Below are positions 11,160 to 19,674 of a DNA stretch of 61,492 nucleotides, piece after piece; within the stretch, counting starts at the first letter, position 1, and each line of letters starts with the position of its first letter. Where the stretch lies: the NCBI GenBank assembly GCA_016204975.1, contig JACQJP010000014.1, positions 1 through 61,492 on the forward strand, in the 5' to 3' direction. A program made the position numbers and the translations under genes. The stretch is from Elusimicrobiota bacterium. Lineage in GTDB: Bacteria > Elusimicrobiota > Elusimicrobia > JACQJP01. The notes beneath the pieces were generated by a model. It was not told where the DNA came from and made no database searches. It saw only the letters and a list, made by a program, of their open reading frames with translations.

Positions 11160-14100
11160 TTAGACGGAAACGGATTTCCCGGCAAGCGCAAGGCGGACCG
11201 CTTTGCGCAGGACCTGGAGACTCACCGGCTTCTCCAAGAGCGGAAGATGCCGCTCGCGAAAATCCCGCTCCAGGGCTTCATTGAGAATATCTCCGGTGAC
11301 AAAAAGGAAGGTGGGGCGAGGCGCATGGCTGAAACTTTCCCAGCCTTCGTAAAGCTCAATGCCTGTGCCGTCCCCCAGGCGAACATCCGTCACCACCAAA
11401 TCAAAGCTTTTTTCGGAGACCTTCTGCGCCGCCTGCCGAAAACTCTGTGCCTCCTCCACCTTCTCCCCCTCCGCCTCCAGACTCTTGCGCAAAAGGGCCA
11501 ACACCGCAGGTTCGTCATCCACCACCAGGACCCGCTTGCCCCGAACCTCCCGAGACAGCCGCACCCCCTGTTTCTGCTCAGAGACCCTACGATGCGCCAC
11601 GGGAAGCTCAAACCAAAACGTGGCTCCTGATCCTTCCGCCGTTTCCTGCAGACCGATTCTCCCCCCATGCTCCTCCAGAATCTGACGACAGACGGTCAGG
11701 CCAAGCCCCGTCCCCCTCCCGGCAGGCTTGGTGGTGAAAAACGGATCAAACAGTCGCCCGCGAGCCGACTCCGGAATTCCGGGGCCTGAGTCGGAGACCT
11801 CCACGCGGACCTTCCCTTTTTGGATCTGACCGGAAATTCGGATTTCCTGCGCCCCAGCGCCAGGAGACACCGCATCGCAGGCATTGTTCACCAGATTGAT
11901 CACCACCTGCTCCAGTTGCTGGAAATCCCCCAGGACCCTGGGCAGCCTGGAATCCAATCGGACGGTCACTGAGACCGAAGCCTCTTTCTTAAGCTTATAC
12001 TCCAAAAGCTCCAAGGCCGCCTGCACCACCTTGGGCAACTCCACGGGGATCTTCTCCCCCTCCCGGCGACGCACGAAAAACAGCAGATTCTGCACGATTT
12101 TCGTGCATCGAAGGGCGCTTTCACGGATGAGGCGCAAATCCTCCCGCATGGAAGCGGCATCCTCCTGCCCGGAAGACAAAAACTCCGCATACCCTACCAC
12201 AGCCTGGAGGGGATTGTTGAGCTCATGGGCCACGCTGGAGATGAGCTGCCCCACCGCGGAAAGCTTCTCCGACCGAATGATCTGCTGCTGGAGCTTCTTG
12301 GCGTCCGTCACGTCCCGAATCACCACCGTCCATTCCCGGTTCATCCAAAAATCCGGATAGGCTCCTCCCCAGGAGAGGCTCAGTTCCAGTCGCTTGCCCT
12401 CCCGAGAAAGCCCGGTCAAAACAAACTCTCTCACAGAACCCCTGGTCATCACCTCCGCCAAGAGGCGTTGCCAATCCTGTCCGGAGCCGCCGGAAAAAAG
12501 GAAGGAAACCGGTTTTCCAAAAACCTGCTCGGGCGCATAGCCAAAGATCTCCTCTGCCCCCCGACTCCAGGTGGCGATCCGATGTTGCGAGGAAAGACCC
12601 AGGATGGCCACTGGGGAGTTGTCCAAAACAGCACGGTACCTGGCCTCCGACTGCGCCAGGTGCCGAAAAAGCCCCAGATTTTCAATGGCCAACCCTGCCG
12701 CATTGGCAAAAAGACCCAGCCCCTCTTGGTCAGACTCCTGGAGAGCCCTGTAGCTATAGTAGTTGTCCGCCGCGAAAACTCCAAAAACCTGGTTTTTGCC
12801 GCAGATGGGAGCCAGGAGAAACTCACGGGTCTTGGACTCCCGGACATAGTCCGGATTGACCCGAAGGTCCTTTAAAGGATCGCGGACCCAAAGGTTTTGC
12901 CGCGTGGAGACGACCTCATTGAGGATCTCCCGGGCCCCCAGGGGAATCTGGCGTTTCCGAAAAGTCTGTTCTGAAAGTCCCATGGCCTCCGTCTCGTAGA
13001 CATACCGTCCCACAATCTTCTGTTGCGCCTTATCCACCCAGTAAAGAGCCGTGCGGTCCAAGGAAAGTCCCCGAGCCACGGACCGGAGAGCCGTCCGGAG
13101 GATGGCCTCCTCGTCGAGCCCCTTCATGACGGCTCTCTCCATCTCCCGCAGCGCCTCCAGAAAACGCACCCGAGACCGCAGCTCCTCCGTTCGGGCACGC
13201 AGCCGCAAGGTCATGGCATTGAAGGAGTCTGCCAATGCCTTCAGTTCCCGGACCTCCGGAGAGGGAAACTGGTAATCCAGGTTCCCCGACGCCAGGTGTT
13301 CGGTTCCCCGCACCAGATCCTGAACCGGCCGGAGGGACCTCTGAACCCTCCAGACGATAAAACCGGACAGGCAGAGACCGATGGCAATGGAAAAGAGGAC
13401 GATCCAAGCGGCAATCAACCTCACCGGCACCAGAAACTCCTCTAAGTCCGCAACCGTCACCACATTCCAGGGGGTTTTAGGAATGGCCCTCTCCCCCATC
13501 AAGAAGTGCGCAAAAGAGGGAGCGGAGCCCATCACCCTATGCCCCTCCCGATTTGTCAGATAGGTCTTTCCACGGGCCCCGACCTGAAACCCCTCCAAGA
13601 GGCCTTGGACAAATCGAAGGTCGCAGACGAAGAGGAGAGTCCCCTGCATCTTTCCGGAAGAACCCCGCCGGGGAGAGGCGTAGCGCAAAATCCAGCCATT
13701 CTCCCCCTGCTCGATCGGAGAGACAAAGAGCTGACCCTCCAAAACACCCTTGGGAATAGGCATCCCCTGTGAAGAAGGCTTTCGGAGTATCCGATGCCCC
13801 TGAACTTGGGAGACGATCCGGCCCTCAAAATCCAGATAGATGATCTCTCGATAGACCTGAGCGCGTTGGGAAAACCTCCATAGGTACTCGTCAATGCCCT
13901 TCCGAACCATCCGGGCCTCCTCCAGAAGGCCATAGGACACGTTCTTGGCGTAGTCTTCAAACAGCGGGCTTTCCCCAACCGCCTCCACCTCCGCGGATCT
14001 GCGTTGGAAAAATGCCCCTAAACTGGAGGAGGCCTGGCGGAGCAGAGTCTGAAGTTGATTCTCCACGTTCAGCAGGATCTGCCTGCGAACCAGAAAATAG

Positions 14101-14195
14101 CTGGACAAGCCAAGCAATAAGACGAATCCAAAAAGGACGGGGATAAAGCCCAGAAGAACATTCCAGCGCAGAGAGAGGTTCTTAGTCCATCTCAT
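11160..14195 (-). CDS. Hybrid sensor histidine kinase (TM-Cache-like-TM-HAMP-GAF-PAS-HisKA-HATPase-REC)
   Basis: [12 protein letters not shown]-box, [30 protein letters not shown]-terminal VLVVDDE...DLVVTDVRL receiver. Confidence 0.93.
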
Positions 14196-14207
14196 GTCAA
14201 TGTCGGA

Positions 14208-14630
14208 TCACAACAATCCAGAAAAGAAAGCGAGCCAGTACACTCCGGATAGAAACGGAAACAAGGCCACCAAACCGAAATGGCTCAGCCGTCCTAAAAA
14301 GCCCCCTGGCCAAATCCGAGGATATACATAGACCTGGATGAACGTCCGATATCCCCAAAAAATGCCCAGAAAGCAGGAAAGCGCCATCCCCAGCCGGCCG
14401 CCCTCCGCCATCTCCCTTGAACAAACCGCCACCACAGTCCCCAGCCCCAAAATCACCAAGACAATCCCCCCACCCATGACCAGCACCATTCTGCGGTTGA
14501 TCGGGGCCAGCTTTGCAAGATCCTCCCTCCAGCCCAACATCCTCGGGGCCAGCAGCATGGCCGGAACGTTCAAAAAATGAAGCATCCCCGCCAGAAAAAG
14601 CAGATCCTCCAGAGAAAGAAGTGGACTCAT
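14208..14630 (-). CDS. Small four-helix membrane protein, hypothetical
   Basis: Four hydrophobic segments; GGGAGG RBS upstream; tightly packed in operon. Confidence 0.75.
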   Translation of the reverse strand: MSPLLSLEDLLFLAGMLHFLNVPAMLLAPRMLGWREDLAKLAPINRRMVLVMGGGIVLVILGLGTVVAVCSREMAEGGRLGMALSCFLGIFWGYRTFIQVYVYPRIWPGGFLGRLSHFGLVALFPFLSGVYWLAFFSGLL

Positions 14631-18990: not shown

Positions 18991-19572
18991 TCAAGACCGC
19001 CGAGGAACCCCCAAAAGCCTCATGGCCTTGCGGACAAACTCCGAAATCTCAAAAGGTTTTAAAAAGAAAGCCTCGGTGTGGGACTGCATAAACCGCAACT
19101 TCTCCTGGGACAAGCGTTTCCCGGTGATGCCGATGACCCTCAGCTTGCGGGTTTTGGGGTTGGCGCGCAGCGTGGCCAGCACGCGCGCTCCATCGATGAC
19201 CGGCATCACCACATCCAGAATCAGCAGATCGGGTGGACTGTTCCCGATGGCCAGCAGGGCCTCGATCCCATCCTGGATCCACTGAACCTCCACATCCGGA
19301 GCCTCCCGCAGAAGGGCCTTTTTGAGAAGATTCCCCACGTCCTGCTCATCCTCCGCTAGGAGCACCCTGCGACGCGCAAAGGAGAGGTTCTGCGGGATGG
19401 GAAAGCGATATCGTTTGAGAAAGTAAACCAGGTCGGAAGCCAAGATGCGGCGGTGGCCCCCGGGGGTGGCAAAGACCTTAATCTTTCCCTCCTTGGCCCA
19501 CTTAATGACCGTGCTCGGGTAGACATTGCAGATATCGGCGGCTTGAAAGGTGGTATAAGTTTTCTCTGTCAT
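18991..19572 (-). CDS. Response regulator with N-terminal excisionase/MerR-like HTH
   Basis: YTTFQAADICNV...WAKEGKIKVFATPGGHRRI HTH; VLLAEDE, LLILDVVMP, FLKPF receiver. Confidence 0.92.
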   Translation of the reverse strand: MTEKTYTTFQAADICNVYPSTVIKWAKEGKIKVFATPGGHRRILASDLVYFLKRYRFPIPQNLSFARRRVLLAEDEQDVGNLLKKALLREAPDVEVQWIQDGIEALLAIGNSPPDLLILDVVMPVIDGARVLATLRANPKTRKLRVIGITGKRLSQEKLRFMQSHTEAFFLKPFEISEFVRKAMRLLGVPRRS

Positions 19573-19645
19573 CTAATTTCTCCCGCTTCCCCAGGATCAG
19601 TCAGAAAAACAAGAGAGGTAATAAAACTAATCCGATGACACCAGG

Positions 19646-19674
19646 AGTATAGACCCCCCTAGTGCGGGTGTCAA
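19646..19674 (-). promoter_or_regulatory. Sigma70-type promoter of the RR-ThDP operon
   Basis: TTGACA (19674-19669), 17-nt spacer, TATACT (19651-19646). Confidence 0.75.

Follow-up and report, generated by a model that had tools for sequence, protein, structure and literature searches.

The question raised by this locus is why a small bacterial genome should keep an acetolactate-synthase-like gene in the midst of signal-transduction genes. The stretch of DNA analysed here (the window) comprises 61,492 nucleotides of Elusimicrobiota bacterium, contig JACQJP010000014.1 of assembly GCA_016204975.1, and the system in question is an operon on its minus strand that joins a regulator, a thiamine diphosphate (ThDP) enzyme, an O-methyltransferase, a secreted solute-binding protein, a small protein with four transmembrane segments (4-TM protein) and a hybrid histidine kinase. 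An initial annotation saw in these genes a synthase pair whose methylated, acyloin-type and diffusible product is sensed by the binding protein and the kinase and fed back through the regulator. The analyses presented below leave a revised form of this idea with about as much belief as doubt on our part: the locus would be a make-and-sense module, in which an acyloin-type metabolite is made, methylated, sensed in the periplasm and allowed to feed back on the operon that produces it.

The ThDP enzyme is easily taken for IlvB, the large subunit of the branched-chain amino-acid enzyme. Its top NCBIfam matches are acetolactate synthase large-subunit models, every one of them under its cut-off, and the protein is thus likely prone to mis-annotation; the IlvB equivalog TIGR00118 scores 416.4 bits against a cut-off of 538.35, and the ScyA-related model NF035927, at 293 bits, is more distant. 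These sub-cut-off matches, together with the fact that the gene is the sole acetolactate-synthase-like one in its own assembly, are what speaks for the simplest alternative, namely that the enzyme is the organism's IlvB and stands beside a two-component system by chance. That explanation is hardly credible, being contradicted at several points besides the missed equivalog cut-offs. The lack of adjacent ilvN and ilvC, already remarked in the initial annotation, extends to the whole 1.50-Mb assembly, in which no match to ilvN was found and the sole match to ilvC reaches 28 bits against a cut-off of 226 (at 86.9% completeness, absence is not proven). A maximum-likelihood tree separates the two enzymes, relatives hold both genes, and the neighbourhood of the enzyme is conserved in 41 loci.

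Among 40 relatives of the same class, 16 carry an orthologue of the enzyme at 46-66% identity, and many, with or without that orthologue, have a second, weaker match (33-38% identity). The weaker matches are true IlvB, the five examined scoring 763-805 bits on TIGR00118. Three true ilvB genes (L107, L109 and L112) adjoin ilvN and ilvC, two of them (L107 and L109) also ilvD, the IlvB-scoring L110 and L111 adjoin a thioredoxin reductase gene instead, and one genome, G029, carries both an ilvB-ilvN-ilvC operon and the cluster-type enzyme. The tree contains 89 rows (the window, 83 relatives and five IlvB), fragments shorter than 500 residues or with a stop (L076, L079, L083, L085), L030, for which there was no long match, and rows with a duplicate ThDP core having been excluded. 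It splits the five IlvB rows from the 84 family rows at 100/100 support, in keeping with pairwise identities of 66.4% to the nearest orthologue (L014), 50.7% to the enzyme of Brevibacillus migulae (L049) and 35.8% to the IlvB of L107.

Ranked against solved structures, the enzyme is closest to BbmA (8x3x; 625 bits, E 9e-187), followed by CsmA (295 bits) and E. coli IlvB (257 bits), with catabolic acetolactate synthases at about 190 bits, far under BbmA. Its ThDP and catalytic Glu motifs are intact (HEEGA, GDAAFAMNG, NNGGHG). The IlvB signature NN-x-x-LGMVRQWQ is replaced by NNGGHGMV in the window enzyme, in most of its clade and in the BbmA-type rows; we take the tryptophan of the RQW motif to be a determinant of acceptor choice in acetohydroxyacid synthases. 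The enzyme of L049 gives 1307 bits to BbmA across 575 residues and is therefore BbmA or nearly so. BbmA-type enzymes from Brevibacillus, Dictyobacter and a Polyangiaceae metagenome-assembled genome (MAG) form one clade (100/99), which is nested within the Elusimicrobial radiation, inside a 41-row clade at 100/99. Since BbmA is the best solved match and its clade is nested among Elusimicrobial rows, the window enzyme belongs to the CybE/BbmA family: judged by its sequence, it is a carboligase of the alpha-hydroxy-beta-keto acid synthase type, in predicted activity, and not IlvB.

What is published on this family gives the prediction chemical content. The consulted part of one account describes CybE as joining 2-oxoisovalerate and 4-hydroxyphenylpyruvate into an alpha-hydroxy-beta-keto acid, presents "CsmA and BpmA" (sic) as new CybE homologues, forming acids of that kind, whose structures explain substrate selectivity, and calls the furanolides made with relatives of this enzyme antibiotic, cytotoxic or algicidal (PMC12395478); the primary paper for BbmA and CsmA is cited there as Liu et al., Nat Chem 2025.

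The enzyme is embedded in a conserved neighbourhood. A census by tblastn with the window proteins and a few accessory proteins (E <= 1e-5, at least half of the query covered) was taken within about 10 kb of the ThDP gene at 41 distinct Elusimicrobial loci, one of them the window. The binding protein recurs at 38 of these, a regulator with HTH_17 and receiver domains beside the ThDP gene at 33, the dCache sensor domain of the kinase at 29, Methyltransf_2 at 26, Cupin_2 at 19, the outer-membrane channel at 12 (window included), the 4-TM protein at 10 and Methyltransf_25 at seven. Many of the misses are contig ends: where the flanks extend for 6 kb or more downstream and 1 kb or more upstream (29 loci), the binding protein was found 28 times, the regulator 24 times and the kinase 26 times. 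Kinases missed by the full-length query proved to be proteins of about 725 residues with the Pfam layout dCache_1-HAMP-HisKA-HATPase-receiver. The genes typically run in the order regulator, ThDP enzyme, methyltransferase(s), binding protein, then Cupin_2, 4-TM protein or Methyltransf_25, sometimes the outer-membrane channel, and finally the kinase. The conservation expected by the initial annotation is thus real, with one important correction concerning its synthase pair, which is not a conserved unit: besides the limited recurrence of Methyltransf_2, the window's methyltransferase type is rare, being best-matched at only four loci (the window, L021, L023 and L032), and the common type of the other loci is only 23-33% identical to it. 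The core is therefore made up of the ThDP enzyme and binding protein together with the two-component system; the tailoring is variable.

The distribution of the core across genomes points the same way. Among the 40 relatives, in which binding-protein orthologues were accepted at E <= 1e-110 and sensor-domain homologues at E <= 1e-10, the ThDP orthologue and the binding-protein orthologue each occur in 16 genomes, and the 15 that have both always have them adjacent; the genome with the binding protein only (G036) is represented by an assembly 86% complete and in 470 contigs. The kinase sensor domain is present in 15 of the 16 ThDP-positive genomes and in none of the 24 others, the gene being cut by a contig end in the sixteenth (G021). 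In two genomes (G009 and G018) the regulator and kinase are unlinked, yet a sensor-domain homologue (34-35%) and an HTH_17-receiver protein (34-37%) are encoded elsewhere in the genome. The ThDP enzyme, the binding protein and the kinase sensor domain are co-inherited. In a broader sample of the phylum, the enzyme (E <= 1e-140) was found in 52 of 401 genomes, unevenly by family: in none of 118 genomes of f7 or 89 of f18, in 9 of 47 of f15, 20 of 48 of f13, 6 of 10 of f9, 8 of 9 of f10 and all four of f4. Related genomes are not independent samples, and these phyletic counts describe a distribution rather than amounting to a test.

The binding protein (SBP_bac_5, 234 bits) begins with a signal-peptide-like N-terminus, and its structure model (predicted local distance difference test, pLDDT, 92.9) has a cluster-C fold. 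Its structural neighbours bind glutathione, peptides, agropinic acid, agrocinopine, sialic acid, nickel complexes and HEHEAA, ligands so diverse that the ligand class is not readable from the fold. No permease or ATPase gene occurs in the cluster, either in the window or at any of the 41 loci; the kinase stands beside the binding protein instead. This bears on the possibility that the locus serves uptake and catabolism of an external aromatic compound by way of the channel, the binding protein, a ThDP lyase or decarboxylase and the methyltransferase, with the two-component system as the switch. The Phenol_MetA_deg family of the channel is named for a putative phenol-degradation pathway, the binding protein has the fold of an ABC-importer receptor, and one ABC importer is encoded elsewhere in the genome. 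We nevertheless consider such a function very unlikely, given that an inner-membrane permease or ATPase gene is missing from all 41 clusters, that no catabolic genes lie downstream, that the named solved relatives of the ThDP enzyme are carboligases, and that the complex predicted below places the binding protein on the kinase. As a separate observation, an operon on contig C26 of the same genome (L121, 235-7824, minus strand) is headed by a second HTH_17-receiver regulator, 37% identical over 184 residues to that of the window, and encodes an NlpC/P60 and C39-like peptidase, an SBP_bac_5 protein, an ABC ATPase with TOBE_2 and two BPD_transp_1 permeases.

The kinase has the layout TM-dCache-TM-HAMP-GAF-PAS-HisKA-HATPase-receiver, so that its sensor domain lies between two transmembrane helices. 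The dCache_1 match in Pfam, 40.3 bits, falls under the cut-off of 45; despite this score, structure prediction for the periplasmic domain (pLDDT 94.4) confirms the fold, the top Foldseek matches of the model in the PDB being the dCache domains of Mlp37, KinD, Tlp3 and DctB. A complex was predicted between the mature binding protein and kinase residues 36-262. For each partner 25 orthologues were aligned, with the loci and their order matched between the two alignments; L017 and L027, which have stop codons in the binding-protein gene, were left out of the alignments for both complex and structure prediction. The model scored 0.63 and the best of three controls 0.00; the mark used for reading such scores is attained by 58 of 80 solved complexes, whereas mismatched pairs attain it in 2 of 110 cases, a calibration that applies only roughly to a model made from our own alignments. 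Model runs agreed in at least 94% of contacts, and pLDDT of the partner was at least 84.

The predicted interface involves D293, R296, Y297, R356, Q359, I360 and K363 of the binding protein (precursor numbering) and D81, K84, N85, S87-L90 and E93 of the kinase. On the side of the binding protein, the column conservation computed beforehand for the 25 orthologous pairs is complete at R296 and Y297 and at least 90% at R356 and I360. The kinase sensor domain, otherwise about 30% identical between orthologues, has only six invariant columns, and D81, L90 and E93 account for three of them. The model supports, without demonstrating, the prediction that the binding protein docks on the dCache domain of the kinase as a co-receptor. 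Binding protein-kinase complexes of other families (LuxPQ, TorTS) have been solved, and the model may draw on them. The initial suggestion that the two proteins work together thus gains in plausibility, from their shared phyletic pattern and from the predicted complex.

The remaining enzymes vary more. The O-methyltransferase (Methyltransf_2, PF00891, 147 bits) has RedM as its nearest solved relative (298 bits), carries an S-adenosylmethionine (SAM) motif, DLGGGPG, at position 187, and places His258, within LLHGF, opposite RedM Ser253. RedM is an N-methyltransferase in which Ser253 occupies the position of the usual catalytic base, according to the consulted part of PMC10784701. With a histidine at that position, unlike RedM, O-methylation of a hydroxyl fits, and on its motifs the window protein is a COMT-type, SAM-dependent methyltransferase, predicted to be an accessory tailoring enzyme rather than part of the core. 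The 4-TM protein shows three or four hydrophobic stretches and has no Pfam or NCBIfam match; in the Atlas it matched unnamed clusters only, with recognition under the usual level. Its homologues, at the 10 loci that have them, occupy the slot taken elsewhere by a Cupin_2 or Methyltransf_25 gene, and homologues of the outer-membrane channel elsewhere sit between the binding-protein and kinase genes. Such lineage-dependent variation of the tailoring genes (two Methyltransf_2 types, Methyltransf_25, Cupin_2) is as expected of lineage-specific variants on one scaffold. The idea of an acyloin-type product has changed its footing since the initial annotation: it has become sharper through the placement of the enzyme in the CybE/BbmA family, and it has lost the conserved pairing of synthase and methyltransferase.

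The small Cupin_2 gene found in the 4-TM slot, in the interval between binding protein and kinase, occurs at L014, L017, L019, L024, L025, L040, L044, L045, L051, L065, L072, L074, L075, L093 and others; the nearest solved relatives of its product are quercetin 2,3-dioxygenases and oxalate decarboxylase, all weak (E 3e-9 at best).

The regulator combines an N-terminal HTH_17 domain (excisionase/MerR-like) with a C-terminal receiver bearing the motifs LILD (D120), ITG and LKPF, and the kinase retains its H-box, G-boxes and the Asp motif of its receiver, so that by these motifs the signal-transduction parts look functional. At four loci (L037, L040, L051 and L093) a divergent OmpR-type regulator and a cytoplasmic hybrid kinase with PAS (or MEDS) lie upstream of the regulator gene; the window is without this pair.

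The gene layout on which all of this rests is summarised in Table 1. The six minus-strand genes bear, by Pfam, the domains that the initial annotation gave them, and its near-consensus promoter also stands, matching 11 of 12 consensus positions and being the top-scoring site within 9400-21000. That scan returned four sites with at least nine of 12 matches, against 2.5 +/- 1.4 in shuffles. TTGACA is present in 16 of 34 orthologous regions upstream of the regulator gene (shuffle maximum 9). The junctions, described at first as overlapping or at most 30 nt, measure 30, -4, 0, 20 and 12 nt in gene order. They are counted with the ThDP gene starting at GTG 18960, which is preceded by a GGGAGGG ribosome-binding site and is most likely the true start rather than 18990. 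A scan for terminators was uninformative, the 19 sites it returned lying close to the chance expectation (17.3 +/- 4.9), and no internal operon terminator stood out above chance.

Table 1. Features of the signalling cluster and of its surroundings, in window coordinates.
Feature	Position	Strand	Basis
Regulator gene, HTH_17 + Response_reg	18991-19572	-	Pfam
ThDP enzyme gene, TPP_enzyme_N/M/C	open reading frame 17209-18990, start revised to 18960	-	Pfam
O-methyltransferase gene, Methyltransf_2 + Dimerisation	16163-17212	-	Pfam
Secreted solute-binding protein gene, SBP_bac_5	14651-16162	-	Pfam
Small 4-TM protein gene (140 residues)	14208-14630	-	no Pfam/NCBIfam family
Hybrid kinase gene, dCache_1-HAMP-GAF-PAS-HisKA-HATPase_c-Response_reg	11160-14195	-	Pfam
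mtnA (S-methyl-5-thioribose-1-phosphate isomerase)	10030-11145	-	TIGR00512, 400 bits vs cut-off 279
Outer-membrane beta-barrel channel gene, Phenol_MetA_deg	19688-20719	-	PF13557, 174 bits
Sigma70-type promoter, TTGACA-17 nt-TATACT	19674-19646	-	read directly
5' leader of regulator gene	19573-19645	-	folding prediction
Chromosomal origin region	38706-46747 and 34072-37965		
RtcB RNA ligase gene with intein	49806-52778		PF14890 (intein)
Two overlapping genes, each Meth_synt_1 + Meth_synt_2	57284-59349		

The extent of six genes originally proposed was too narrow. The outer-membrane channel gene forms a separate transcription unit directly upstream of the operon promoter and is counted in the module because its homologues sit inside the cluster at 11 other loci. 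At the opposite end, mtnA begins 14 nt past the kinase gene, and since no convincing terminator intervenes, it is probably co-transcribed with the operon. As a functional member of the module it was rejected, for it adjoins the cluster at no other locus and is probably a passenger.

Two further elements of the upstream region deserve mention. The leader of the regulator gene, folded over 19560-19640 (minus strand), has a predicted energy of -23.6 kcal/mol (z = -2.29; equalled by 2 of 200 shuffles), and its CU-rich tract, ATTACCTCTCTTG, might mask the ribosome-binding site of that gene by base-pairing, a weakly supported possibility; the leaders of L032 and L034 hold a comparable ATTAYCTYTCTTG tract. 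An Rfam scan of 9000-21500, leader included, matched no family. The word AGTAAA was considered as a general operator and rejected, as it is restricted to a subclade and absent from the window. Of the 34 upstream regions 12 contain it, whereas shuffles gave 6.5 on average and at most 9. In that one subclade, words of the form (A)GTAAA(C/T/G) recur at intervals of about 18-27 nt in the stretch from the -10 box to the regulator's start codon (L065, L068, L070, L075, L093, L101, L037, L040 and L051), and these repeats are a possible candidate operator there.

From these parts a working circuit can be proposed. A cytoplasmic carboligase of the CybE/BbmA type would join two 2-oxo acids, at least one of them probably bulky or aromatic, into an alpha-hydroxy-beta-keto acid that would readily lose CO2 to give an acyloin (alpha-hydroxyketone). 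The COMT-type methyltransferase would then O-methylate a hydroxyl of the carboligase product, and the small hydrophobic compound would leave the cell, the 4-TM protein and the Phenol_MetA_deg channel being candidates for its passage. In the periplasm the family-5 binding protein would capture the compound and, as modelled, dock on the dCache domain of the hybrid kinase. The kinase would set the phosphorylation of the regulator, and the regulator would control the strong promoter of its own operon, thereby closing a feedback loop (autoinduction); this last step is proposed because of the gene order and the recurrence of a strong promoter before the regulator gene. The chemistry of the product, its export, its identity with the ligand and the sign of the regulation are what we infer, and that the product is diffusible and serves as the ligand of the sensor is pure conjecture on our part.

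Analogy with two described classes of molecules makes a signalling role plausible. Alpha-hydroxyketones are known autoinducers of Vibrio (CAI-1) and Legionella (LAI-1). Nostoclides, products of a cyanobacterin-like cluster of the CybE-containing type, are described in the consulted part of PMC9324945 as cell-density-dependent mediators in Nostoc punctiforme.

The main competing explanation is that the sensor reads an outside cue, such as a peptide, a compound from a competitor or host, or a nutrient, and that the regulator in response turns on the making of an acyloin-type product directed at other organisms, perhaps an antimicrobial or allelochemical, instead of a self-signal. Such an arrangement would have the same anatomy and conservation as a circuit that senses its own product, and the bioactive furanolides of the enzyme's relatives (PMC12395478, in the part consulted) are consistent with it. 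Family-5 binding proteins take many foreign ligands, including peptides, opines, sialic acid, nickel complexes and the plant-derived signal HEHEAA, and the second, divergent OmpR-type pair at some loci suggests further inputs. Two features speak for the other side without being decisive: the coupling of enzyme, binding protein and sensor persists where the genes are unlinked, which is easier to understand if the receptor reads the product of the enzyme, and the presence of sensor genes in the synthase operon is a feedback design. We regard the outside-cue explanation as possible, if doubtful.

The proposal that the locus makes and senses its own metabolite has to be held against several observations that weigh against it. 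One genome (G026) has the ThDP gene and the kinase with no binding-protein orthologue, the clusters of genus g10 are without an adjacent regulator or kinase, and 10 of the 41 loci have no detected Methyltransf_2 or Methyltransf_25 gene. A dedicated exporter is not present. Family-5 binding proteins ordinarily serve ABC importers, and the only two BPD_transp_1 permeases of this genome, on contig 26 with another SBP_bac_5 protein, could in principle be shared as an importer. No Hpt domain was found in the assembly (86.9% complete) to link the hybrid kinase with the regulator. The score of the predicted complex is a model confidence derived from our own alignments and says nothing on ligand dependence. 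Finally, dCache domains bind small acids unaided, and KinD with pyruvate and DctB with succinate are among the best structural matches, so that a 2-oxo acid resembling a substrate, and not the product, could be what the sensor reads.

For the wider family of the enzyme, 77 loci were drawn from one-genome-per-species contigs. A furanolide-type context, with a FabH-like neighbour, was seen at four of them: Brevibacillus twice, Dictyobacter and a Nitrospinota MAG. A tblastn search with two FabH-like furanolide synthases matched only L042, L049, L069 and L086 and no Elusimicrobial locus scanned, and the genome of the window has no match at E <= 1e-5. At 28 non-Elusimicrobial loci the enzyme stands instead beside genes for STAS, SpoIIE-phosphatase and/or RsbW-like kinase proteins, that is, in a partner-switching context (L057, L059, L061, L066, L073, L077-L084, L087-L092, L094, L095, L098-L100, L102-L104 and L106; e.g. 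L080:9538-13661). The order, established by Pfam at six loci, is STAS, ThDP enzyme, SpoIIE phosphatase with 5TMR_LYT (dCache-HAMP at L081) and HATPase_c_2 kinase. The hosts include Methanobacterium, Bathyarchaeia, Methanocella, Methanophagales, Halobacteria-labelled MAGs, Dehalococcoidia and other Chloroflexota, Verrucomicrobiota and Sumerlaeota. These enzymes, 47-51% identical to that of the window, form a 28-row clade (100/100), 26 rows of which have that context. No literature on archaeal or bacterial partner-switching modules with such an enzyme was found in the collection searched. A further clade (100/100; L054-L056, L058, L062, L063 and L067) has no signalling neighbour by tblastn; several MAGs of this L054-L067 clade are labelled Elusimicrobia, and at L054 a gene for a BamB-like pyrroloquinoline quinone (PQQ) beta-propeller lies directly upstream.

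The partner-switching loci lend some weight to a metabolic alternative, in which the system deals with overflow or detoxification of 2-oxo acids: the sensor would read pyruvate or other 2-oxo or dicarboxylic acids in the periplasm or outside the cell, and the enzyme would remove the excess 2-oxo acids by carboligation, much as catabolic acetolactate synthase does during acetoin fermentation, with no signalling role for the product. The 5TMR_LYT domain found in the SpoIIE phosphatases beside the sister-clade enzymes occurs in pyruvate-sensing kinases, the sensor of the window kinase resembles the pyruvate-binding KinD and succinate-binding DctB dCache domains, and the organism, a groundwater bacterium with a small genome, is presumably, from the literature on its phylum, a fermenter. 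The cluster has no gene for acetolactate decarboxylase or butanediol dehydrogenase, however, and the active-site motif and bit scores side with BbmA-type enzymes rather than with IlvB or the catabolic acetolactate synthases. O-methyltransferases, a cupin and an outer-membrane channel would also make no sense in plain overflow metabolism, and altogether this alternative seems quite unlikely.

More generally, the enzyme family is tied to membrane-sensor modules of two unrelated designs, which raises the prior for its product or its substrate being a signal and leaves unsaid which of the two. It is tempting to extend the make-and-sense proposal to the family as a whole and to suppose that CybE/BbmA-like carboligases are a widespread, unrecognised class of signal synthases, wired to membrane sensors more than once, in Elusimicrobia through the binding protein, the dCache hybrid kinase and the HTH_17 regulator, and in methanogens, Bathyarchaeia, Dehalococcoidia, Verrucomicrobiota and others through partner-switching modules with 5TMR_LYT or dCache sensors; we state this as an unlikely conjecture.

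Comparison with described systems shows which elements of the window operon are familiar. The furanolide enzymes CybE, BbmA and CsmA belong to the same ThDP family and have the NNGGHG motif in common with the window enzyme, whereas their clusters pair the enzyme with a FabH-like furanolide synthase of the CybF type and the window pairs it with a binding protein, a kinase and a regulator. IlvB/IlvN shares the superfamily, the three-domain architecture, the catalytic Glu motif and the GD(A/G)...NN ThDP motif; the window enzyme differs in being only about 35% identical, in having neither the small subunit nor the RQW motif and in falling into a separate clade. With nostoclide signalling the likeness lies in a CybE-type cluster product acting as a mediator dependent on cell density; there, as far as the consulted part of PMC9324945 goes, the compound is a complete furanolide from a larger cluster with no binding-protein/kinase cassette, and no receptor is named.

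On the side of the receptor, LuxP-LuxQ of Vibrio (autoinducer AI-2) and TorT-TorS likewise place a binding protein without a transporter beside a hybrid kinase whose periplasmic domain, in LuxPQ, is of the double PAS/PDC type. The protein there is of the ribose-binding type and here of family 5/cluster C, with no sequence relation between them; luxS lies outside the receptor operon, whereas the synthase gene here lies within it; and no Hpt protein was found here. CqsA/CqsS (CAI-1) and LqsA/LqsS (LAI-1) resemble the window in the proposed signal class, alpha-hydroxyketones, and in having the synthase gene beside that of the sensor kinase, but CqsA and LqsA are acyl-CoA transferases dependent on pyridoxal phosphate rather than ThDP carboligases, and CqsS and LqsS sense within the membrane and use no binding protein. 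AapF/PipR offers a family-5 binding protein acting as receptor for a non-peptide signal, HEHEAA, and AapF is a structural neighbour of the window protein (7kz8/7kz9); it works with an ABC importer that feeds a cytoplasmic LuxR-type receptor, whereas here no importer is linked and the kinase is the predicted partner. Cassettes of a synthase with its receptor are thus already known, and what is new is the class of synthase, the receptor combination and the phylum.

The window is contig 45 of a 55-contig, 1.50-Mb assembly in which no contamination was seen; the nearest public loci are Elusimicrobia/Elusimicrobiota MAGs, many of them from groundwater, and the window DNA itself is present in four groundwater metagenome runs, all of one study. 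The window also holds the chromosomal origin region (Table 1), with a plus-strand group of dnaA, dnaN, gyrB and gyrA and a minus-strand group of mnmE, jag and yidC; the sign of the GC skew switches near 40 kb, and the signalling cluster lies about 20 kb away from this region. Elsewhere, the RtcB RNA ligase gene encodes 990 residues, with an intein between two RtcB stretches, and two overlapping neighbour genes, each matching both domains of cobalamin-independent methionine synthase, look by sequence like split or duplicated MetE-like genes.

Neither this cassette nor Elusimicrobial signalling is described in the literature searched, where no report of Elusimicrobia with a furanolide, butenolide, acyloin or alpha-hydroxyketone was found either; relevant material may exist outside that literature or in the supplements to the BbmA paper. 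Elusimicrobia and the other lineages that carry the enzyme family are almost entirely uncultured. The cluster provides a compact and directly testable hypothesis about them, with soluble enzymes, a secreted binding protein and named interface residues. If the product is indeed the ligand, the operon would represent a ThDP-dependent route to alpha-hydroxyketone-like autoinducers and a new type of receptor, a family-5 binding protein on a dCache kinase, and it would explain why a 1.5-Mb genome without branched-chain amino-acid synthesis has kept an "acetolactate synthase". Should the wider conjecture about the family also be true, the phylum Elusimicrobiota would have in the window operon its first quorum-sensing-like circuit, and acyloin-type molecules made from 2-oxo acids would be a chemical language shared by uncultured bacteria and archaea.

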